Below are positions 12,158 to 52,244 of a stretch of DNA of 52,244 bases, piece by piece. The stretch is from a virus: the IMG/VR virus record IMGVR_UViG_3300024992_000001. One strand, written 5' to 3'. Made by a program: the position numbers and the translations under genes. Below the pieces are notes generated by a model. The model was not told where the DNA came from and did not search any database. It worked only from the letters and a program-made list of their open reading frames with translations. Position 1 is the first letter of the stretch. The number at the start of each line of letters is the position of its first letter.

Positions 12158-12193
12158 TTAACAATTGACAGTGTATTAACCCTTAGTTATTAT
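12158..12193 (+). promoter_or_regulatory. Operator-over-promoter site 2
   Basis: TTAACAATTGACAGTGTATTAA (12158-12179). TTGACA (12165-12170), a 17-nt spacer, then TATTAT (12188-12193). Confidence 0.65.
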
Positions 12194-13650: not shown

Positions 13651-13658
13651 CATAACTA

Positions 13659-13694
13659 AAAATAACCGGCTGGTTCTCAGCCGGTTATTTTTAT
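13659..13694 (+). terminator. Intrinsic terminator
   Basis: AAAATAACCGGCTG-gttct-CAGCCGGTTATTTTT. Long perfect stem plus a T-run. Confidence 0.8.
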
Positions 13695-20301: not shown

Positions 20302-20701
20302 ACAACTCTGCAAAGAATTCGGCGGCATGACCGACGACCAGGCTATAGCCGAATTGAACCGGCGCGGTATCGAAGTAAGAGCCGAAGCCCTGCCCTTTGC
20401 CAATGAAAAAATCTGGAAACGGAAGGTCATATATCTTTGCGAAGCACCGATAATTCATTTCCCCCGAAAAAGTATACCGGTACCGGTGCCAGTTACAATA
20501 ACCTTTACAGACGACCCTAGAAAAGATTTTGACAAATTTGCAGGGATAAAACTTAATTATCAATCTTATAAACAGGTCCACATGGGCTATTCTCACTGGG
20601 TTGACGACTGGGTAAAAGGCGAGCCGGGGAACGGCTATTTTGTGTATTACCGCTGGTATTACTGGGTTAAAGACGGCCCGGAGCAGCCATACTTTGGCTA
20701 A
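20288..20701 (+). CDS. Hypothetical protein (137 aa)
   Basis: ORF track. Trp/Tyr-rich C-terminus. Confidence 0.55.
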   Translation: MTEAEQLCKEFGGMTDDQAIAELNRRGIEVRAEALPFANEKIWKRKVIYLCEAPIIHFPRKSIPVPVPVTITFTDDPRKDFDKFAGIKLNYQSYKQVHMGYSHWVDDWVKGEPGNGYFVYYRWYYWVKDGPEQPYFG

Positions 20702-20771
20702 AATAGACCTGGCCTGTGATAGCGTCCGGGCCGCTACCGGCGCCCTGGTGACCGAGTACATCCATGCCTGC

Positions 20772-21077
20772 ATGAAATGCCGCCGCCCGGTGCCGCTCTG
20801 CCGGCACGACGCGCTCCACCAGCTCGCCGGCTATCACGTCTTCCTGGCCCTATTTAATCGGGTTACCCATTACCACACGGGCCGGACCGGGCAATTGCGC
20901 TTTATCGGGCTCTACGACCCGGAGCGCTCGGACTGGCCCTGCATCGTGCGGTATCCGGTAAAGAGCGGCGGTACCCACGACCGGGCCAGCGCGAGCCTGT
21001 TATCATTCCGACCGGCTGGCCGCCGGAAGCCCCGGCCCGATAAAACAATCAGGAAATCAATTCAGAAAAGACGTTGA
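20772..21077 (+). CDS. Hypothetical CxxC protein, GC-rich paralogue of 18910-19350 (start uncertain; ORF open from 20640)
   Basis: CMKCRRPVPLC plus LRFIGLYDPERSDWPCIVRY. The segment is visibly more GC-rich than its neighbours. Confidence 0.5.
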   Translation: MKCRRPVPLCRHDALHQLAGYHVFLALFNRVTHYHTGRTGQLRFIGLYDPERSDWPCIVRYPVKSGGTHDRASASLLSFRPAGRRKPRPDKTIRKSIQKRR

Positions 21078-21166
21078 CAAAGTGTGGTATAGTGGAAGTG
21101 GACAGTGTGTTCCTCCTTTTAGGCTGACTTGGTTCGATACGTTGCTAAGTGGGTTGCGGTAGAAGT

Positions 21167-21226
21167 TGCCCCCGGCTATAAATTTTCTCAGACTCCATCT
21201 CCTGGGAAAATCGGTAGCCGGGGGCA
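21167..21226. other. Two-tier GC-rich hairpin at the end of the early arm
   Basis: The outer stem is GCCCCCGGCTA (21168-21178) with TAGCCGGGGGC (21215-21225). The inner stem is TTTTCTCAG with CCTGGGAAAA. No T-run follows. Confidence 0.6.
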
Positions 21227-21249
21227 GCGTCGTTTATCGGGATAATAGG

Positions 21250-21585
21250 GAAAATAATCAAAATAATCAGAGTTTTAAAAAAAATGTTATTACCCGTGTT
21301 TCGGTATTGCAAAGGGATAAATTCGGGTAACTAAATACAAATAATCAGAAAAATAGCAAAAATAACACTTTTTTTTCGCATTTTTGAATCGGGCCGAAAG
21401 GCTCTTTTTTTATGCCCTGGAAGGGTCTTTGGAGTGTATATAGGGGATAAAATAATGATATAAAAAAGTTACTTATTTTTGTTATTATTGTGATTATTTG
21501 TATTTAGTTACCTCGATTTAGGTTATTGTAAAGGGAAAACTCAGTAATAAGTGTTTTTATAAAATCGTGATTATTTTGATTATGA
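21250..21585. repeat. About 335-bp AT-rich dyad-symmetric element (nested inverted repeats centred near 21419)
   Basis: Perfect 22-bp IR: GGTAACTAAATACAAATAATCA (21326-21347) with 21491-21512. Perfect 16-bp IR: ATAATCAAAATAATCA (21254-21269) with 21568-21583. Both share the same centre. The motif ATAATCA/TGATTAT occurs 3+3 times. Confidence 0.85.
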
Positions 21586-21699
21586 CAGAAAGTCAGCTTT
21601 CGGAAAAATTAAATTATTTTTTATATTTTTATTACTACTCAGTAGTGACAAAATGGGTTTTGGGCTTAACTTTTGGCCGGGAAAAATTCGAAATTCTTC

Positions 21700-21990
21700 G
21701 GTTTTTGGCCGTTCGTGTGCCGTTCACATGCGTTCGCGCTCATTCATGTACGTTGCGCCCAGGCTGCGAGCCCGCCCGTGTGTGCCGCCGCGAGCTTGTA
21801 TACCTGTATGTAGTATATGCGCGGGTAGTATACTGGTAATTGAGCGGGTATACTGGGGCTTTACAGGTCCGTTACCAGGGCTTAGAATAGGACCAGGCCG
21901 GTCCGATATATGGCTCGGTGCCGGGAGTTGGCAGCTCCAGGCCCGGCGGTCCGGCCCTAATAATATTAGCCTGGAGCCGTGTTTAGCCTA
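21700..21990. other. GC-rich repeat/hairpin cluster upstream of terS (candidate packaging site or structured RNA)
   Basis: GTATAC(C/T)(T)G occurs at 21798, 21828 and 21848, and GCGGGTA occurs twice. CGTTC repeats lie at 21710-21765. A 9-bp IR is GCTCCAGGC (21934-21942) with GCCTGGAGC (21969-21977). Confidence 0.4.
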
Positions 21991-22145
21991 ATCGGGGTTA
22001 TTCGATGGTATATTTACTGCCGGATAATGTGAATACACTGTGATAGAGTATAGGTGTTTAGGTTATTGTTATAGGCTAAACTCTATTTGCAGTTATAGAA
22101 TAATAAAGATAATTGCGATTATCTTGACTAACTATTGGGCCTAAT

Positions 22146-22736
22146 ATGCAGGTAGTAGAGAACGCTGGTGCTAAGCCCTGGGATATTCTTCCTGATGAAG
22201 ATATGGCCTGGTTTAAGCGCTTTGAGAAATATAGACTGATGCAGCCTGAAGACAGAAGTCTAAAGGTTTTGTTTATGCTGGAGCGCGAACGGCGTAAGCG
22301 CCTGGGTACCCTGGACCAGCTTCCAGCGTACCGTACCTTCGTGCAGGTAGCTAAGAAACATGACTGGCCTGGTCGTGCTAGAGAGTTTGATAAGGCTGAG
22401 ATTGAGAAGGACAGGGCAGGTGCTGAGCTACTACGTAGTGAGGAGTCACGTTCAGCAGAAGAAGAAAGAGCTTTACAAAGACAACATCGCCGCCAGCTTA
22501 TGAACATTTTATTTAATAAGGTGCTGGCCGCCATCAATACGGAAAGTTTTGATTTAACGAAAGCCAAGCCGGGGGAGCTACTTCAGTTCATGCGAGTCTA
22601 TCTTAAAGAGAATCGTGAGGAATATGATAATGCTCCAGCAAGGTACCGCCGGTTCCAGTTTGATACGCTAACCGACCAGGAGCTTTATGACCTTATCCAA
22701 GAACAACTCGCCCTTAATCCTGGCCGCACTAGATGA
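22146..22736 (+). CDS. terS: Putative terminase small subunit (196 aa)
   Basis: Position immediately upstream of, and overlapping, terL. Charged helical protein. No specific motif recognised. Confidence 0.5.
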   Translation: MQVVENAGAKPWDILPDEDMAWFKRFEKYRLMQPEDRSLKVLFMLERERRKRLGTLDQLPAYRTFVQVAKKHDWPGRAREFDKAEIEKDRAGAELLRSEESRSAEEERALQRQHRRQLMNILFNKVLAAINTESFDLTKAKPGELLQFMRVYLKENREEYDNAPARYRRFQFDTLTDQELYDLIQEQLALNPGRTR

Positions 22737-24336
22737 GCTCCGGCAAAGGGGCCGACCTGTGACGGGCCTGGCTCTGGCTAGTGGGGAATCACTTATAAAA
22801 TCTGACCCTGATGTGATTTCCTGGCTAGAACAAAATTTCTACATACCTGAAGCGAACAACGGCCCGATACGCCTGGCCCCCTACATCAAGGCCGCGTTGC
22901 GCGAGGCTCTACGCCGCGACGAAAACGGCGACTTCGTTTACTCGACCATCATCTGGTCGGACATAAAAAAGAGCGGTAAGTCCTCGATAGCCGCCGGCGT
23001 AGCCCTCTGGTTCGCTTATATGCTGGAGTGGGGCTCTATCAAGGTTATCGCTAACGACCTGGAGCAGGCCGACTCTCGCGTTGCTTACTATATGCGCCGG
23101 GCTATCGCGCTCAACCCCAAAATGCGCGAAGAAATAAAACAGCGCAACTATCTTATCCAGCTCCCGAACATGACCCTTATCAAAGCTATCCCGATTGACC
23201 CGGAAGGCGAAGCCGGCGGCAACGACGACATGATTATCTTCTCGGAGCTCTGGGGGGCGGTCGGAGCGAAAGCCGAGCGCATGTGGACTGAAGCCACGCT
23301 GCCGCCTAACAAGCACGGGCGTTCTTTTCGCTGGGTCGAAACTTACGCCGGGTTTTCGGGGGAGTCGGTCCTGCTCGAAAATCTTTACAACCAGGTTGTC
23401 AGGCCGGAGTATCAGATAACCTTGTCCGAAGAATACGACCGCGATAAAGACCGCATGGTAGATTTCCCTGGTCTGGAAGTTTACGCGAATCCGGTTACGC
23501 GAATGTTCTGCCTGTGGAACACGAAACCCAGGCTGCCCTGGCAGACCCCTTCTTATTACGCTACCGAAAAGGCGGTCATTCAAAACGAATCCGAGTACGG
23601 GCGGATTCACGAAAACAAGTGGTCGGCTTCGACAAAGAAGTTTGTCGATTCGAATCTATGGCGTGCCTGTGCTCTCAGTCCAAAAGAATTCAAGGAGCTT
23701 CTTGATAAGCACGTGCTGGAGCCGGATGACCCGATGGTAGCGGGAATTGACGCGGCGGTGACCAGGGATAACTTTGCGGTCTCGCTGGTTAGCCGGGTAG
23801 ACGATACCGCCTATGTGCGAATGACCAGGCTCTGGGTACCGCCGCCGGGTAAGCGCGAAATAAATTTCGCCGGGCCGGAGTATTTCTTGCGCTGGCTGGT
23901 GACGCCTGCCGACGAATTTGTCCAGGATGATAACGACCAGCCGTTACCGAATCCTGAGACCGGCGAGCTGGAACGGGGCCTGGACCTGAATATTATTTCT
24001 TTCAGCTATGACCCTTATCAGCTTGTGGACATGAGCCAGCGATTGAGAAGGGCCGGGGTCGGAAATTTCGAGCCGTTCAATCAAAACACCTTGCGGGCGG
24101 AAGCGGATAGTCTTTTTCAAACCTTGATTTACCGGCGGGGCGTCCGGCACCTGAACGACCCGGACCTTAACCGGCACATGGAAAACGCTAATTCCCAGGT
24201 GACCTATATCGGGAATTCCGATACCGGCCAACCTTCGAAAATCCGGCTGGTCAAGAAGACAACAACCGATAAAATCGATTTGGCCGTCGCAACCAGCATG
24301 GCGGTGTACCGAATCATAAAACAATATAATGTTTAA
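22687..24336 (+). CDS. terL: Terminase large subunit (549 aa)
   Basis: ATPase-like KKSGKSS and MIIFSELW motifs. The RNaseH-like nuclease half carries AGIDAAVTRD, SYDPYQ and KIDLAVATS. Confidence 0.85.
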   Translation: MTLSKNNSPLILAALDELRQRGRPVTGLALASGESLIKSDPDVISWLEQNFYIPEANNGPIRLAPYIKAALREALRRDENGDFVYSTIIWSDIKKSGKSSIAAGVALWFAYMLEWGSIKVIANDLEQADSRVAYYMRRAIALNPKMREEIKQRNYLIQLPNMTLIKAIPIDPEGEAGGNDDMIIFSELWGAVGAKAERMWTEATLPPNKHGRSFRWVETYAGFSGESVLLENLYNQVVRPEYQITLSEEYDRDKDRMVDFPGLEVYANPVTRMFCLWNTKPRLPWQTPSYYATEKAVIQNESEYGRIHENKWSASTKKFVDSNLWRACALSPKEFKELLDKHVLEPDDPMVAGIDAAVTRDNFAVSLVSRVDDTAYVRMTRLWVPPPGKREINFAGPEYFLRWLVTPADEFVQDDNDQPLPNPETGELERGLDLNIISFSYDPYQLVDMSQRLRRAGVGNFEPFNQNTLRAEADSLFQTLIYRRGVRHLNDPDLNRHMENANSQVTYIGNSDTGQPSKIRLVKKTTTDKIDLAVATSMAVYRIIKQYNV

Positions 24337-31906: not shown

Positions 31907-34144
31907 ATGGCCGAAATTGTTGAAGCCGACCAACTCGATACCGACGAAAATCTAGAAACAGGTCAGGACCAGGAAAATACCCCGGTTCATACCGGCGTAA
32001 TGGTTGCTTTTTACCTGGAGCCCGAAGAAGCCGCAAAGCTGGCTCTGCCGGAAGGCTCGTTAGGTGCCGGTGACCAGGCCAGCGCTCCCGAAGACCTGCA
32101 TATCACGCTGGCCTATTTCGGCGATATTAATAATCACCCTCAACAAACCAAGTTAACCATGCTCTATAACCTCAAATGGTTTGCTGAGTGCTTTCGGCCT
32201 GTTAGCGGCAAGGTCTCCGGTTATGCCCTCTTCGATAGCCCGGAAGGCGAACCTAAACCTTTTGTTGCTCTTTTCGATAGTCCTGGGCTCGAATCTTTTA
32301 GAAACACCCTCAAAATGAACATGCAGTCGGAAGGAATTTACCCGGCTGCCAATCACGGTTTTACCCCTCACATCACCCTGGCTTATCTGGCCGACGGTAC
32401 CAAATTACCGGACGCGCAAATACCGGCGCTGGACCTGGATTTTGAGTCTATCAGTCTCTGCTGGGGTGAAGAGCGTTACGACTTCCCCCTGGGTACTTAC
32501 CTCAATGATGCTCAGTTCGAGCAGTATACCGTCAAAGCTTCTCAGGCTAATTATGGCGCGAAGGCCGGTCAGGCGATTGTCGGCAAGCTCACCAGGGGCG
32601 CTGACGGTAAATTTTCCAGCGGCGGGCAGTCTACTCCTGCCGGTTCCATGTCCGGCCCAAAGGGTAAAACTCCCCGGAAGACTGCTGCTACCGACGCGGC
32701 GAAAGCACAGGCTAAAGCTGACCTGGCAGCGGCCAAAGAGCAGGATAAGCAGGACGCCGCTAACGAAGCCGCTCAGAAAGCCCTGGAGAATACCGGGAAT
32801 ACCCTGGACAAATTGGGGGTAGATTCCGATATTGCCGAAGCTCTGACGGTCGGAGATTCTATCGGCGATATTTCCGGGGTTAACGAAGCTACTAAAAATA
32901 AATTGCGCGATGCTGGTATCGGCCAGGATTATCCTGACGGTACTTTTGACCTGACCCCCAATGGCCGCCGGCTGGTTAAGGCCGCTATGAAGGGTGATGT
33001 TAAAGCCGCGAAGCGGGCACTCGCAACCGGCAAACAGGTTGCCGATAAAAAAGCTGCCGTGGCGGCCAGAAAGAAAAAGAAAACTAAAAAAGAATTCGGT
33101 GAAACCCCGGTCCTGGCTACCACTTTCAAATCTTTTGTTGACGACAAAGGTCAGCGGCGCTGGCTCACCATGTCCTCTTCCGGTTTCCAGGATAAGGACA
33201 AACAATTTGTTACCACCAGGGCCCTTACCCAGGACGTAGCGCGAAGCTACAAAGAACACCCTGACAAGAATTTCGGGCCGCTCCGCTGGTGGCACGTCCC
33301 CGGTGTGGACATAGGCACCTGTGATTTCCGGGGCATGTCCGGTTCTATTTTGATTGAATCCGGCACCTTTAAGACCAAAGAAATAGCGGAAGCTATTACT
33401 TCTTACGCCGCTAAAAATCCCCTGGGCGTAAGTATCGGGTTTGAAAATTTCGTTTTTGAGCCGGACGAAACCGGCGCTTTTAACTACATCACGACCAAAG
33501 AAAGAAGCTTGCTGCCTGAAGTGAGAGCTTCTAATTGGCTTGCTCGGTTTTTTAATTTTACAAAAAAGGAAAAAGACATGTTACCGGAAAAAATCCAGGA
33601 ACTTTATAAGGCGATGGGGGGCAGCCCTGAAGCGCTCGCTCAGGTCAACGAAATCGTAAGCCTGGCTGCTCAAACCGAAAAGGCTGCTCTCGACGCCGGT
33701 CTTACTGTCAAAGAAATTCAGCAGCCTGGTGCTGCTGAAGAAGAGCAGTATATCGGGGATATGACACATAAGGAATTTCAGGACCAGGTCGGCCAGGCTG
33801 TCAAAGCTCAGATTGCTCCTTTTGCCGCTGTAATGGGCAACCTGACCGAGGCCCTCAAAGGTGTTTCGACCACGAAAGAGGCTCAGAAAACTCTGACCGA
33901 AACCATTGAAAAACAGGCTCAGACCATCAAGGAAATGCAAGGGAAGCTCGGTGAGCTTTCGGCTGAAACCCCCAGGGCCTTTAACCAGTATCGCGCTTCT
34001 CAGCAGGATACGACCGTCGATACCACGAAAACTGAAGAGACGGTTAAAAGCCAGGCCCCCGCGCCGGATTCTTATGACGCCTTCTTGAATGGAATGTTCA
34101 ATTTTGGACCTCAAACCGGGCAACCGGCTCAACCTGTTAAATAG
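31907..34144 (+). CDS. Fusion protein: N-terminal 2H phosphoesterase (LigT/CPDase-like), Lys/Ala-rich linker, HK97-type prohead protease-like domain and coiled-coil scaffold-like C-terminus (745 aa)
   Basis: Two HxTx motifs, LHITLAYF (His codon 32099-32101) and PHITLAYL (His codon 32369-32371). The protease-like region reads WWHVPGVDIGTCDF...GVSIGF...ERSLLPEVRASN. The C-terminus is helical (QKTLTETIEKQAQTIKEMQGKLGEL). It sits directly upstream of the capsid gene. Confidence 0.7.
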   Translation: MAEIVEADQLDTDENLETGQDQENTPVHTGVMVAFYLEPEEAAKLALPEGSLGAGDQASAPEDLHITLAYFGDINNHPQQTKLTMLYNLKWFAECFRPVSGKVSGYALFDSPEGEPKPFVALFDSPGLESFRNTLKMNMQSEGIYPAANHGFTPHITLAYLADGTKLPDAQIPALDLDFESISLCWGEERYDFPLGTYLNDAQFEQYTVKASQANYGAKAGQAIVGKLTRGADGKFSSGGQSTPAGSMSGPKGKTPRKTAATDAAKAQAKADLAAAKEQDKQDAANEAAQKALENTGNTLDKLGVDSDIAEALTVGDSIGDISGVNEATKNKLRDAGIGQDYPDGTFDLTPNGRRLVKAAMKGDVKAAKRALATGKQVADKKAAVAARKKKKTKKEFGETPVLATTFKSFVDDKGQRRWLTMSSSGFQDKDKQFVTTRALTQDVARSYKEHPDKNFGPLRWWHVPGVDIGTCDFRGMSGSILIESGTFKTKEIAEAITSYAAKNPLGVSIGFENFVFEPDETGAFNYITTKERSLLPEVRASNWLARFFNFTKKEKDMLPEKIQELYKAMGGSPEALAQVNEIVSLAAQTEKAALDAGLTVKEIQQPGAAEEEQYIGDMTHKEFQDQVGQAVKAQIAPFAAVMGNLTEALKGVSTTKEAQKTLTETIEKQAQTIKEMQGKLGELSAETPRAFNQYRASQQDTTVDTTKTEETVKSQAPAPDSYDAFLNGMFNFGPQTGQPAQPVK

Positions 34145-50372: not shown

Positions 50373-50942
50373 TTAATCTTCTCCCCATTTATCGTTTCTT
50401 TTAGCCCAGTCTACAGCCCCGGCATTTTTATTTTTATTTTGCCTGGAGGTATTAACCTTTTTATTTTGTTTTTCTTTTGTATCTGTATATTTTGCAGTAG
50501 GGGTATCTGCAAAATTTGCGGTACCCCCATCTGCAAAATTTGCAGTAGGGGTGTGGATAAGTGGATAACCCTTGATGTTAAGCTCATAGATGCTGGTATC
50601 TTTTGCACCGTTCGCCTTATTCATCAAATGTTTGAAGATGAAACCCCGCTGGACCAGGCTCTTTAGAGCTGTCGCTAAACTCCGCTCGCTGACTCCAGCT
50701 CCCCGGTCCACCTGGGAGCCGTCGAACCGCTTGATACCTTCCATGAACTGGCTATAGCTGATTGCGTCGGCGGCTTTCCGGTCACCGTACTGCGTGGTAT
50801 AGCCGTAAGTGTGCCGGAAAATATAGAGCATTACTTTTAACTCGCTCTCGGATAAATCCTGCATTAAAAAATCCAGGAACTTATTCGGAATTCCGGTAAA
50901 AGTCGGCTCTCCAAAACCTTCAAACTCGGTTGAAGTAGTCAT
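50373..50942 (-). CDS. rep: Replication initiator with a lambda-O/DnaD-like winged-helix N-terminus (189 aa)
   Basis: IPNKFLDFLMQDLSESELKVMLYIFRHTYGY...SYSQFMEGI...GVSERSLATALKSLVQRGFI. Iterons and DnaA boxes lie inside its 3' third. Confidence 0.7.
   Translation of the reverse strand: MTTSTEFEGFGEPTFTGIPNKFLDFLMQDLSESELKVMLYIFRHTYGYTTQYGDRKAADAISYSQFMEGIKRFDGSQVDRGAGVSERSLATALKSLVQRGFIFKHLMNKANGAKDTSIYELNIKGYPLIHTPTANFADGGTANFADTPTAKYTDTKEKQNKKVNTSRQNKNKNAGAVDWAKRNDKWGED
50481..50552. repeat. Three tandem 24-bp iterons inside rep
   Basis: The units are ATCTGTATATTTTGCAGTAGGGGT, ATCTGCAAAATTTGCGGTACCCCC and ATCTGCAAAATTTGCAGTAGGGGT. Each contains the palindrome CTGCAAA-A-TTTGCAG or a variant. 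Confidence 0.7.
50552..50568. promoter_or_regulatory. Two tandem DnaA-box-like 9-mers
   Basis: TGTGGATAA (50552-50560) is the reverse complement of the consensus TTATCCACA. AGTGGATAA (50560-50568) is the reverse complement of TTATCCACT. Confidence 0.5.
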
Positions 50943-50948
50943 TTTGGC

Positions 50949-50984
50949 TATTTACTTTCTTTTTCACACCTGCTAAGATGTGAA
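50949..50984 (-). promoter_or_regulatory. Putative rep promoter with an inverted repeat over the -35 element; near-leaderless
   Basis: The minus strand reads TTAGCA (50976..50971), a 16-nt spacer, TAAATA (50954..50949), then 6 nt and the ATG. The IR TTCACA/TGTGAA (50963-50984) brackets the -35. Confidence 0.4.
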
Positions 50985-51045
50985 GGACACGAAAAAGGAG
51001 CTTTTTTAAAAGCCATTTCGGTCAAATATTTGGAAAAGAATTTTC

Positions 51046-51068
51046 AGCCCCTAGTGCAAATAGGGGCT
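51046..51068. terminator. Hairpin between the par operon and rep (possible terminator)
   Basis: AGCCCCTA-gtgcaaa-TAGGGGCT. The T-rich tail is clearer on the + strand than on the - strand. Confidence 0.4.
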
Positions 51069-51129
51069 TTTATTATGTCTAGAACATGTTATCAACTAAT
51101 GGGGAAGAGTCAAGAGGATTAATTTTGGA

Positions 51130-51333
51130 TTAGCCGATACGGACAAACATATTAGGATACTTTTCTGTTACATCTTCAACTTTAACCGGCAATTCCCCCT
51201 TATCAGCCTTTTCCTGTAAATCTTTCCTTAGCTCTTCAAAAACTTCGTCCGATAAATACTCATTCATATTTACTTCGTTACTGATTTGAAAAACCCAGTC
51301 TTTAGAGTAAATTTTAGCAATTTTCTTTTTCAT
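51130..51333 (-). CDS. Hypothetical acidic protein, third gene of the par operon (67 aa; internal ATG chosen)
   Basis: ATG 51333 overlaps the upstream stop (TAATG). The product reads MKKKIAKIYSKDWVF... Confidence 0.5.
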   Translation of the reverse strand: MKKKIAKIYSKDWVFQISNEVNMNEYLSDEVFEELRKDLQEKADKGELPVKVEDVTEKYPNMFVRIG

Positions 51334-51605
51334 TACTCTCCAGCTCCCCGCCGCGCTAACTTTTCCCGGCAAGCATTGTTAATCCAGGTATTGACGCTCA
51401 CATCGTCTTCTTCAGCGGCTTTTTTGATTTCTTCCAGGAGCGCCGGTCGAAAGTAAGTCGAATAAGGCTTTTTATTTTTTCTGCTCTCGGTTTCCACAGG
51501 TGGGGCGACTTCGGCTTCCAGCTCGCCCAGGAAGCGGTCAGCGGCGGCGGCCTGGTCGGTATTCCCTTTTACCGGCAGTTTCGTGACTTTGGTAGTGAGC
51601 GCCAT
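51333..51605 (-). CDS. parG: Ribbon-helix-helix (ParG/CopG-like) centromere-binding/partition adaptor candidate (90 aa)
   Basis: The C-terminal KKPYSTYFRPALLEEIKKAAEEDDVSVNTWINNACREKL fits a strand-helix-helix fold. It lies directly downstream of parA. Confidence 0.6.
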   Translation of the reverse strand: MALTTKVTKLPVKGNTDQAAAADRFLGELEAEVAPPVETESRKNKKPYSTYFRPALLEEIKKAAEEDDVSVNTWINNACREKLARRGAGE

Positions 51606-51609
51606 TTAA

Positions 51610-52244
51610 TTAATCCTCTTCTTTGTAAATTTCTTTTTCGAGCGCCGTTATTTCTTCGATAGCCTTCGGGTCTCGTGGTTGGTATTCGGTGACGGCCCGG
51701 CCCGTAGCCGACGAGTTCGAGAATGACTTGCGCCGGCCAATGCTGCCCAGGACCTCGATTCCTTCAATCCCCTTCAAAAACTCCAGGGCCTCTTCGTTAT
51801 CGCGGCCAGCCGGGTCGGCCATGTTCAAGATTGTACAGACCCTTATTTCGTGTGGATTCCCGGCCCTTGCATCTTCGATAATTTCGAGAGTTTGCTGGAA
51901 GGCCAGTATATCGTAAGTGCGCGGCTGGACCGGCACCAGGACGGTCTCGGCAATCAACAGGGCGGCCCGTAGAGACAGGTTGTCCTGGCCGCCTACGTCA
52001 ATGATGGTATCGTCGTATTTAGCCGCTAAATCGGCCCCCTGGGCGCTCAGGAGCCGGTTTCTAAGGCTTACCGCCGCGAAGCCGATATTGCCTAGGTTGT
52101 CGTCCCTTAACTGGGTAAAGCTTAAAGAATTTTCCTGCTTATCGCCGTCAATCAGGAGCACGGAGCGCCGGCGAGCGGTCCGTAAGACGGCCAGGTTAGT
52201 TGCGAGTGTGGTCTTCCCGCTACCCCCTTTGGTTGACCCTACAA
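51610..52244 (-). CDS. parA: ParA/Soj-family partition ATPase, main body (N-terminus continues at 140..128 after circular joining; about 215 aa in total)
   Basis: LLIDGDKQ (Walker A' region), TIIDVGGQD (Walker B-like) and VLVPVQP, with the small size typical of type Ib ParA proteins. Confidence 0.85.
   Translation of the reverse strand, partial: VGSTKGGSGKTTLATNLAVLRTARRRSVLLIDGDKQENSLSFTQLRDDNLGNIGFAAVSLRNRLLSAQGADLAAKYDDTIIDVGGQDNLSLRAALLIAETVLVPVQPRTYDILAFQQTLEIIEDARAGNPHEIRVCTILNMADPAGRDNEEALEFLKGIEGIEVLGSIGRRKSFSNSSATGRAVTEYQPRDPKAIEEITALEKEIYKEED
52118..52244. repeat. Terminal duplication copy 2 (identical to 1-127)
   Basis: Read directly. Confidence 0.95.

Follow-up and report, generated by a model that had tools for sequence, protein, structure and literature searches.

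A 330-bp dyad-symmetric AT-rich element upstream of the terminase genes of a putative phage-plasmid and its possible role in packaging initiation

What function could be served by a mirror-symmetric, AT-rich element of ~330 bp lying between the early and the late genes of a virus? Such an element is found in IMG/VR virus record IMGVR_UViG_3300024992_000001, a stretch of 52,244 nucleotides (the window) with an identical 127-bp direct repeat at both ends (1-127 and 52118-52244), which identifies it as a complete circular assembly of ~52.1 kb. The original prediction placed the element at 21250-21585 and offered four functions for it, namely a lytic origin, a recombinase or telomere-resolvase target, a packaging site and a centromere. 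Among these, the packaging site fits best by position and architecture, whereas the telomere-resolvase target, the origin and the centromere are disfavoured. The feature is real, unusual in its size and symmetry, and an orphan without detectable sequence relatives. We tentatively propose, at less than an even chance, that the dyad is the core of a packaging-initiation region resembling SPP1 pac or P1 pac, in which double-stranded DNA would provide a platform for assembly of the small terminase protein TerS.

Anatomy of the dyad

The dyad lies in a gene-free gap of 1,068 bp (21078-22145) between the last early open reading frame (ORF) and terS, which is the sole large non-coding region of the genome and marks the early/late junction. 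The 1.07-kb gene-free region of the original prediction is thus borne out: the ORFs inside the gap gave no family matches, and, as had also been claimed, nothing in the coding annotation explains the element. A hidden gene in the gap was considered and rejected, as these ORFs are not conserved and look non-coding, and the frames to the right of 21765 are broken in the sole relative.

Two perfect inverted repeats were confirmed by sequence reading. The inner repeat of 22 bp has its left copy, GGTAACTAAATACAAATAATCA, at 21326-21347 and its right copy at 21491-21512, and the outer repeat of 16 bp, ATAATCAAAATAATCA at 21254-21269, is perfectly complementary to 21568-21583. Their computed symmetry centres, 21419 for the 22-bp repeat and 21418.5 for the 16-bp repeat, agree with the common centre proposed near 21419. 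In a repeat search, the inner inverted repeat extended to 59 nt (81%) and the outer one to 40 nt (83%). The imperfect mirroring claimed for the sequence between the repeats was recovered as well. When the left arm (21254-21386, A-rich on the + strand) was aligned with the reverse complement of the right arm (21450-21583, T-rich on the + strand, delimited by the alignment and the repeat search), 106 of 138 columns matched (77%), with 9 gap columns and 23 mismatches. Only the centre needed correction: its non-symmetric, relatively GC-richer part, proposed here as a cleavage or looped segment, spans ~63 bp (21387-21449, without complementarity in the global alignment) rather than ~100 bp.

The mirror-symmetric AT-rich element of ~330 bp is real and statistically robust. 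Gapless complementarity about 21419 reached 88 of 169 positions, the top value of all centres in the 52-kb genome (mean 42, standard deviation 6), and the runner-up centre more than 5 bp away scored 69. The same value exceeded those of all 500 dinucleotide-preserving shuffles of both arms (mean 51, maximum 73), in which the longest perfect inverted match was 13 nt, compared to 22 nt in the element. An assembly artefact was rejected, because identity between the arms is 77%, not 100%, and the element is interior to the circular contig.

Each arm carries an outer and an inner cluster, each of two to three tandem 9-bp units of the AAAATAATC type, which belong to a direct-repeat family (D2) with start-to-start spacings of 9, 9 and 90. 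The outer-left cluster (21242-21269, + strand; ATAATAGGG AAAATAATC AAAATAATC A) includes the left copy of the 16-bp perfect repeat and was detected by Tandem Repeats Finder (TRF) with period 9 at 21251-21269 and as a member of D2. The inner-left cluster (21341-21367, + strand; ATAATCAGA AAAATAGCA AAAATAACA), assigned to D2 and read in the sequence, is mirrored by the inner-right cluster (21473-21498, - strand; TRF period 9, 2.9 copies), and the outer-right cluster (21568-21583, - strand), found by repeat search and sequence reading, is the right copy of the 16-bp perfect repeat. The heptamer ATAATCA lies on the + strand at 21254, 21263 and 21341 and on the - strand at 21491, 21568 and 21577, confirming the three copies per side that had been reported. 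Six of its 12 genome copies fall within the element, while 4.7 would be expected in the whole genome; for AATAATCA, the element holds five of seven copies (1.6 expected).

In each arm, a box of ~24 bp, the M box, is found between the two clusters, and it is co-oriented in the two arms. A regex scan located copy 1 (GTTTCGGTATTGCAAAGGGATAAA) at 21298-21321 and copy 2 (TTTAGGTTATTGTAAAGGGAAAAC) at 21517-21540, both on the + strand; the box is flipped relative to the arm symmetry, and local complementarity is lost there in the alignment. The sub-motifs GGTATTGCAAAGGG (21303) and GGTTATTGTAAAGGG (21521) are accordingly both on the + strand, as first noticed, together with a third copy at 22061. This third M box (TTTAGGTTATTGTTATAGGCTAAA; 22057-22080, + strand; repeat family D12) stands directly 5' of the -35 element of the terS-proximal promoter and is conserved in the related contig L081 (see below), and its bases 22057-22069 are identical over 13/13 positions to 21517-21529. 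A search of the 52 kb for the pattern GGT(T)ATTGYWAWRGG returned exactly three perfect matches, each on the + strand and within the intergenic region. By our own estimate, ~0.5 cases of a 13-mer common to the element and elsewhere in the genome are expected, so such a match is not rare; copy 3 nevertheless appears credible from its location, its strand and its conservation in the relative. Confinement of the M box to this locus (3/3) and the presence of half of the ATAATCA copies in the element are consistent with a protein that targets one locus only.

Folded as single-stranded DNA, the element reaches -64 kcal/mol, compared to -26 +/- 3.4 kcal/mol for shuffles (z = -11), and as RNA at -114 kcal/mol on the + strand and -85 kcal/mol on the - strand. 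This stability would suit a structure-forming single-strand or RNA element, in which a long hairpin would serve as a single-strand origin or be a site of RNase III processing or retroregulation, but it follows automatically from any inverted repeat. Moreover, only 4 of the 23 arm mismatches would permit G-U pairs, the differences being chiefly transversions and indels; the inversion of the ~15-nt M-box motif breaks the pairing; and the terminator-like hairpin in the centre (see below) would halt transcription before the second arm. In Rfam, no match was found at gathering thresholds in the whole window, nor at E <= 1 in 20900-22250. Such a structural role is therefore highly improbable. Cruciform extrusion in the duplex is implausible too, because 143 bp separate the inner perfect repeats. 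Together with the few wobble-compatible mismatches and the flipped M box, this separation makes the symmetry look like a layout of protein sites on double-stranded DNA.

The composition of the element also differs from that of its surroundings: it is the AT-richest 300 bp in the genome, at 26% GC, and its 26-31% GC is foreign to the ~50% GC of the genome. Such a composition, combined with sharp boundaries, perfect 16-bp terminal inverted repeats and repeated sub-terminal motifs in each arm, would be expected of a non-autonomous mobile or selfish palindromic insertion, similar to a miniature inverted-repeat transposable element, whose terminal and sub-terminal repeats bind a transposase and which has no phage function. 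Yet no target-site duplication was found, the flanks GGGAAA and GACAGA being different; the element is single-copy in the genome, and its 22-mer occurs neither in IMG/VR nor in 185,579 representative genomes. In addition, a related and conserved copy of the flipped M box stands at the terS promoter, a point in favour of the element being integrated into a phage function. We thus consider an insertion of this type decidedly improbable.

A possible packaging-initiation region upstream of terS

The replicon apparently derives from a Chloroflexota metagenome-assembled genome, its TerL being 100% identical to a protein of 'Chloroflexi bacterium 54-19', a genome from a bioreactor sample. Coding is on the + strand throughout ~2.5-21 kb and 22-50 kb. 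The early block encodes SNF2 and UvrD helicases, a primase/polymerase, a helix-turn-helix regulator and a ComM-like ATPase, and the late block comprises terS (phrog_6299), terL and portal, then tail genes and an amidase endolysin. A maintenance block on the - strand (50373-52244 plus 1-141) encodes ParA, a ParG-like ribbon-helix-helix (RHH) protein, an 80-aa ORF and a lambda-O-like Rep. Domains of integrases, resolvases or protelomerases were not found in the ~75 ORFs scanned against Pfam and PHROGs, a few small ORFs lying outside the scan. With maintenance genes present and no integrase found, the replicon looks like a phage-plasmid. The search for tRNA genes returned none.

The intergenic region that holds the dyad adjoins terS, and the dyad itself is 560 bp upstream of the terS-terL-portal genes, with a conserved promoter region in between. 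The proposed binding partner would be the product of terS (22146-22736, + strand), which matches phrog_6299 with E = 5.4e-7, has a homologue (P0121) of 62% identity and is directly followed by terL. Position at the early/late junction upstream of terS counts for packaging initiation, which in our analysis fits best. The architecture agrees: pac and cos sites contain repeated short motifs around a unique segment, and here 3 + 3 ATAATCA copies in 9-bp clusters, along with the M boxes, surround the ~63-bp centre. Two further points speak for this reading, namely the apparent link to the terS promoter, as M box 3 abuts the -35 element of a promoter conserved in L081, and the fact that the competing function of origin is accounted for within the Rep gene.

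In lambda, cos (cosQ-cosN-cosB) lies immediately upstream of the small terminase gene and combines repeated Nu1 R sites with a bend and a nick site of partly two-fold symmetry. The dyad differs in that the lambda TerS sites are one-sided and that the symmetric cosN measures ~22 bp, compared to 330 bp here. A closer parallel may be SPP1 pac, where TerS-bound pacL and pacR flank the cut site pacC (PMC6316719) and where pac overlaps the terS promoters, so that TerS represses its own synthesis (PMC6316719, PMC4737164). According to the model for SF6/SPP1, a ring of weak helix-turn-helix domains selects ~100 bp of bendable AT-rich DNA, and segments of ~100 bp were proposed to wrap the TerS ring (PMC4737164); a dyad arm of ~130 bp is of the same order. 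Both elements are AT-rich, are located at the start of the terS operon and have short-repeat regions on either side of a central segment, to which TerS binds in SPP1 and might bind here. Unlike the dyad, SPP1 pac has boxes that are direct repeats, without a long inverted repeat, and overlaps the start of terS instead of lying 560 bp upstream, and the two share no sequence similarity. In P1, pac measures 161 bp, and an IHF site and the cut lie between two hexamer clusters, HEX4 and HEX3 (PMC10028697). Like the dyad, P1 pac thus places clusters of a 6-7-bp motif (4 + 3 in P1; 3 + 3 ATAATCA here) on both sides of a central region, and its host element is a plasmid prophage. In contrast, the P1 site lies inside pacA, its hexamers are methylation-regulated Dam sites and it needs IHF/HU, while the dyad is twice as long, non-coding and built of arms with extended homology.

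Based on these comparisons, we suggest how the element might work. A TerS oligomer would bind or wrap each AT-rich arm of ~130 bp with its two clusters of AAAATAATC-type units. The two arms would bracket the GC-richer, non-symmetric centre of ~63 bp, where TerL could make its first cut, of either the pac or the cos type. The co-oriented M boxes and the asymmetric centre would break the symmetry and set the direction of packaging towards terS. The third M box, next to the terS promoter, could allow TerS to feed back on its own operon, as in SPP1, and so couple packaging to terS expression. Under this reading, the element would fall into the pac/cos category, and no new category is required by the evidence.

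The DNA between the dyad and terS could be compared to one relative. The only TerS homologue found, P0121 (62% identity), is encoded on the 1,231-bp JGI contig L081, Ga0683527_0270323 of JGI sample 3300086611, whose positions 1-396, upstream of terS, align to 21765-22145 of the window at 73% nucleotide identity. The coding sequence of terS shows 66%, and the 5' end of terL 76%. Since 73% exceeds the 66% of terS, the non-coding segment appears to be under constraint, at least from 21765 onwards, as L081 ends at the equivalent of this position, with 180 bp left to the right edge of the dyad, and the comparison stops there. Two conserved promoters, TTTACA-17-TAGAAT (21860-21888) and TTTGCA-16-GATAAT (22086-22113), were identified in the segment, which also holds GTATAC-containing repeats. 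Its conserved blocks are TACCTGTATGTAGTATATG, the GGTATACTGGG repeats, GGTCCGATATATGGCT and ATTATCTTGACTAA, and M box 3 lies within the best-conserved block. The segment may act as a leader RNA, carry regulator sites or contain the real TerS site.

Several observations weigh against assigning packaging initiation to the dyad. Characterised pac and cos sites usually lie within terS or right beside it, and the dyad is 560 bp away. The segment 21765-22145, with 73% conservation and repeats of its own, is an equally good or even better candidate for the actual TerS site. Phasing of A/T triplets (the 10-bp signal) was present in the left arm only, so intrinsic bending is not established. Among 80 metagenome loci with distant TerL relatives, neither a TerS homologue nor a comparable dyad was found (0 of each). 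Finally, the + strand terminator-like hairpin in the centre would not be expected in a packaging site of the pac or cos type and is in keeping with a role in transcription.

This hairpin leads to the chief rival of the packaging reading, an early/late transcription boundary. The GAAA-tetraloop hairpin with a following T7 run that had been noticed in the centre is present at 21391-21411, where a terminator scan recorded GGGCC-GAAA-GGCTC and then T7 on the + strand, a weak match to the GC-rich hairpin and T run of an intrinsic terminator. In such a boundary, the hairpin and T7 run would stop + strand read-through from the early genes, the repeat clusters would bind a phage regulator (a late activator or a repressor/insulator) that gates the terS operon, and the M boxes would be activator sites. 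A terminator would indeed be needed between the modules, all genes at 2.5-21 and 22-50 kb being on the + strand. M box 3 stands at a class I/II activator position, just 5' of the -35 element of the conserved promoter, and a very stable hairpin is present just upstream, at 21165-21228 (~25 bp; RNA -50.9 kcal/mol, z = -5.5), with no T run after it. The central hairpin, however, has a stem of only 5 bp, and the fold of 21370-21445 is no stabler than those of shuffles (z = -0.3), while far stronger terminators occur elsewhere in the genome, for example that with 16-bp perfect arms at 13657-13693. Promoters in the early region are of the canonical TTGACA-N17-TAnnnT form; the sole promoter match touching the dyad is a weak sigma-70-type ATGACA-16-AAAAAT (9/12) at its right edge (21582-21609), and none lies within the arms. 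Furthermore, the M box is missing from the other late-region promoters in the 52-kb pattern scan. As the original prediction rightly held, the organisation of the element goes beyond that of a simple terminator: the hairpin covers ~20 of 335 bp, and ~30 bp, not 330, would suffice for termination. Overall, we regard a transcription boundary as rather unlikely.

Replication, partition and recombination functions

Whether the dyad could instead be an origin was addressed by locating the origin of the replicon. The maintenance block encodes a lambda-O-like initiator (PF04492 match, 32 bits; phrog_678, E = 1e-12), and an origin signature spanning 50424-50568 lies inside its Rep_O-like gene (50373-50942, - strand). 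It is composed of a T-tract AT-rich block (50424-50478) and three tandem 24-bp iterons, each with the palindromic core CTGCAAAATTTGCAG (50479-50550), directly followed by a perfect DnaA box (50552-50560) and then by a DnaA box with one mismatch (50560-50568). Judged by its sequence, this segment is a textbook lambda-type origin, and in the lambda arrangement the origin lies within the initiator gene. Rep_O-type iterons with this core occur only at 50479-50550, with no copy in the dyad, and the DnaA box TTATCCACA has no match at <=1 mismatch in 21000-22200. The dyad being without Rep iterons and DnaA boxes, the lytic origin offered by the original prediction is disfavoured, and an origin becomes a minority reading that is limited to a hypothetical separate lytic origin.

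Such a second, lytic-phase origin would consist of an AT-rich unwinding region flanked by symmetric initiator sites, and would be served by the primase/polymerase-helicase module, apart from the plasmid-type origin in the Rep gene. In P1-like phage-plasmids, plasmid and lytic origins are separate. The dyad resembles iteron origins (lambda ori in O; SPP1 oriL/oriR) as an AT-rich segment with short tandem repeats, its 26% GC being the genome minimum over 300 bp, as an unwinding element would require. GC skew turns sharply positive from here, with the minimum of cumulative skew at ~19-21 kb, and in SPP1 one initiator binds both the first origin and a second one, located between late genes (PMC6316719). 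But a full origin signature is already present in the Rep_O-like gene at 50424-50568, and the dyad, unlike SPP1 oriR, has neither the iterons of the initiator nor a DnaA box. The primase and helicase genes are at least 12 kb away, and the cumulative skew is multi-phasic and not diagnostic. A lytic origin at the dyad is thus quite unlikely.

A centromere was considered in view of the partition genes. The genome encodes ParA and a ParG-like protein of 90 aa (51333-51605) with an Arc-like RHH domain at its C-terminus, and RHH centromere proteins bind arrays of 7-9-bp repeats, direct and inverted (omega heptads, ParG boxes). The dyad could therefore be a partition centromere, bound by the ParG-like protein and moved by ParA, that might also silence the late operon while the replicon is a plasmid. 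Some repeats of the right arm read AATCACA, resembling the omega heptad WATCACW, and the arrays of 7-9-bp units are direct and inverted, as in the centromeres of TP228 (parH/ParG) and pSM19035 (omega heptads). In contrast to those systems, the element is not beside the par operon, shares no motif with the par promoter region, and has its units at 9-bp spacing in small clusters 90 bp apart, with merely two to three units per cluster. Type Ib centromeres adjoin the par operon and normally serve as its operator, while the par genes here are at least 21 kb from the element. Neither ATAATCA units nor dyad repeats were found in the ~400 bp upstream of parA, where instead a 32-bp unit recurs (positions 185 and 285), accompanied by an inverted repeat of 17 bp. 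The centromere option is accordingly disfavoured, and we consider it very improbable. parA itself spans the circular junction, and the Walker A motif it encodes is located 5' of the GTG start given in the ORF list.

Centromere and packaging functions might also be combined in a two-fold symmetric nucleoprotein switch, in which the ParG-like RHH protein and/or TerS would bind the 9-bp arrays with the central terminator looped out. In the plasmid state, this complex would silence or insulate the late operon, and after induction it would nucleate packaging or a lytic origin. We know of no phage for which a combined centromere/silencer and pac function has been described, and we give this model a very small chance.

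Dyad-symmetric non-coding sites in plasmid prophages also include N15 telRL, the target of a telomere resolvase, and telRL must be palindromic through its centre. The dyad has an asymmetric ~63-bp centre, and no protelomerase gene was found in the ~75 ORFs scanned, so a telomere-resolvase target was rejected. The recombinase target proposed in the same breath was dropped likewise, and attP or res sites were excluded for the lack of any integrase or recombinase gene in the scanned ORFs.

Should packaging initiation indeed be the function, the site would be unusually large and symmetric, and its two TerS-sized arms bracketing the cut would provide a test case for the selection of bendable DNA by TerS rings. 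For Chloroflexota phage-plasmids, moreover, it would be the first signal of this kind to be described, in a group for which, to our knowledge, next to no mobile elements have been characterised. A pac or cos site and a separate origin in the Rep gene would together supply cis-acting parts for vectors or transducing particles in hard-to-manipulate bacteria. If the element is a regulatory boundary or a selfish insertion, its interest would be local only.

Searches for relatives and neighbouring features

Relatives of the dyad were sought in several ways. In a blastn search of 20600-22800 against phage and plasmid collections, only a 62-bp chance match in Borrelia plasmids was obtained, and the exact 22-mer had no match in the 185,579 representative (GTDB) genomes or in IMG/VR. 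A heptamer-spacing scan of IMG/VR gave 22 matches, all by chance in AT-rich genomes (e.g. L109, in an NNQ-repeat coding region). TerL relatives were many, none of them above ~49% identity. Searches with the TerS alignment and with the conserved non-coding blocks returned nothing real, and no homologue was found with a chimeric query built from the three ORFs that precede the dyad. In a PDB sequence search, TerL and TerS had no match, so the packaging type is not inferable by homology.

AT-rich regions before the packaging genes of three metagenome loci with distant TerL relatives (L034, L036 and L011) were examined as possible analogues of the dyad and rejected, being divergent-promoter/operator regions instead. 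Two related phages among them, L034 (1230-1420) and L036 (2530-2720), have an AT-rich divergent-promoter region in common, with TGACAAATGTCA-type palindromes and inverted TTTGTTCTAA motifs, which looks like an immunity/operator region.

In the window itself, a few features were recorded on either side of the dyad. To its left, 20640-21077 forms an island of 62% GC amid ~48% GC and contains an Arg/Cys/His-rich ORF of 145 codons, whose status as a gene is uncertain and for which neither a homologue nor a family match was found. To its right, between the dyad and the conserved region, a 13-bp palindrome, ACTACTcAGTAGT, lies at 21634-21646, and CGTTC-type units at ~10-bp spacing (cgttcgtgtgc cgttcacatg cgttcgcgctc) were seen by eye at 21700-21760. 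Farther away, in the structural block, 31907-34144 encodes a 745-aa protein with an N-terminal 2H phosphoesterase/LigT-like domain, and the gene is preceded by its own promoter and a terminator. In the early region, four promoters, at 12166, 13720, 13826 and 14712, form a family with a common TTGACAGGGTATTAAT and then a -10 element at 17 bp, and their conserved GGGTATTAAT spacer suggests a common operator.

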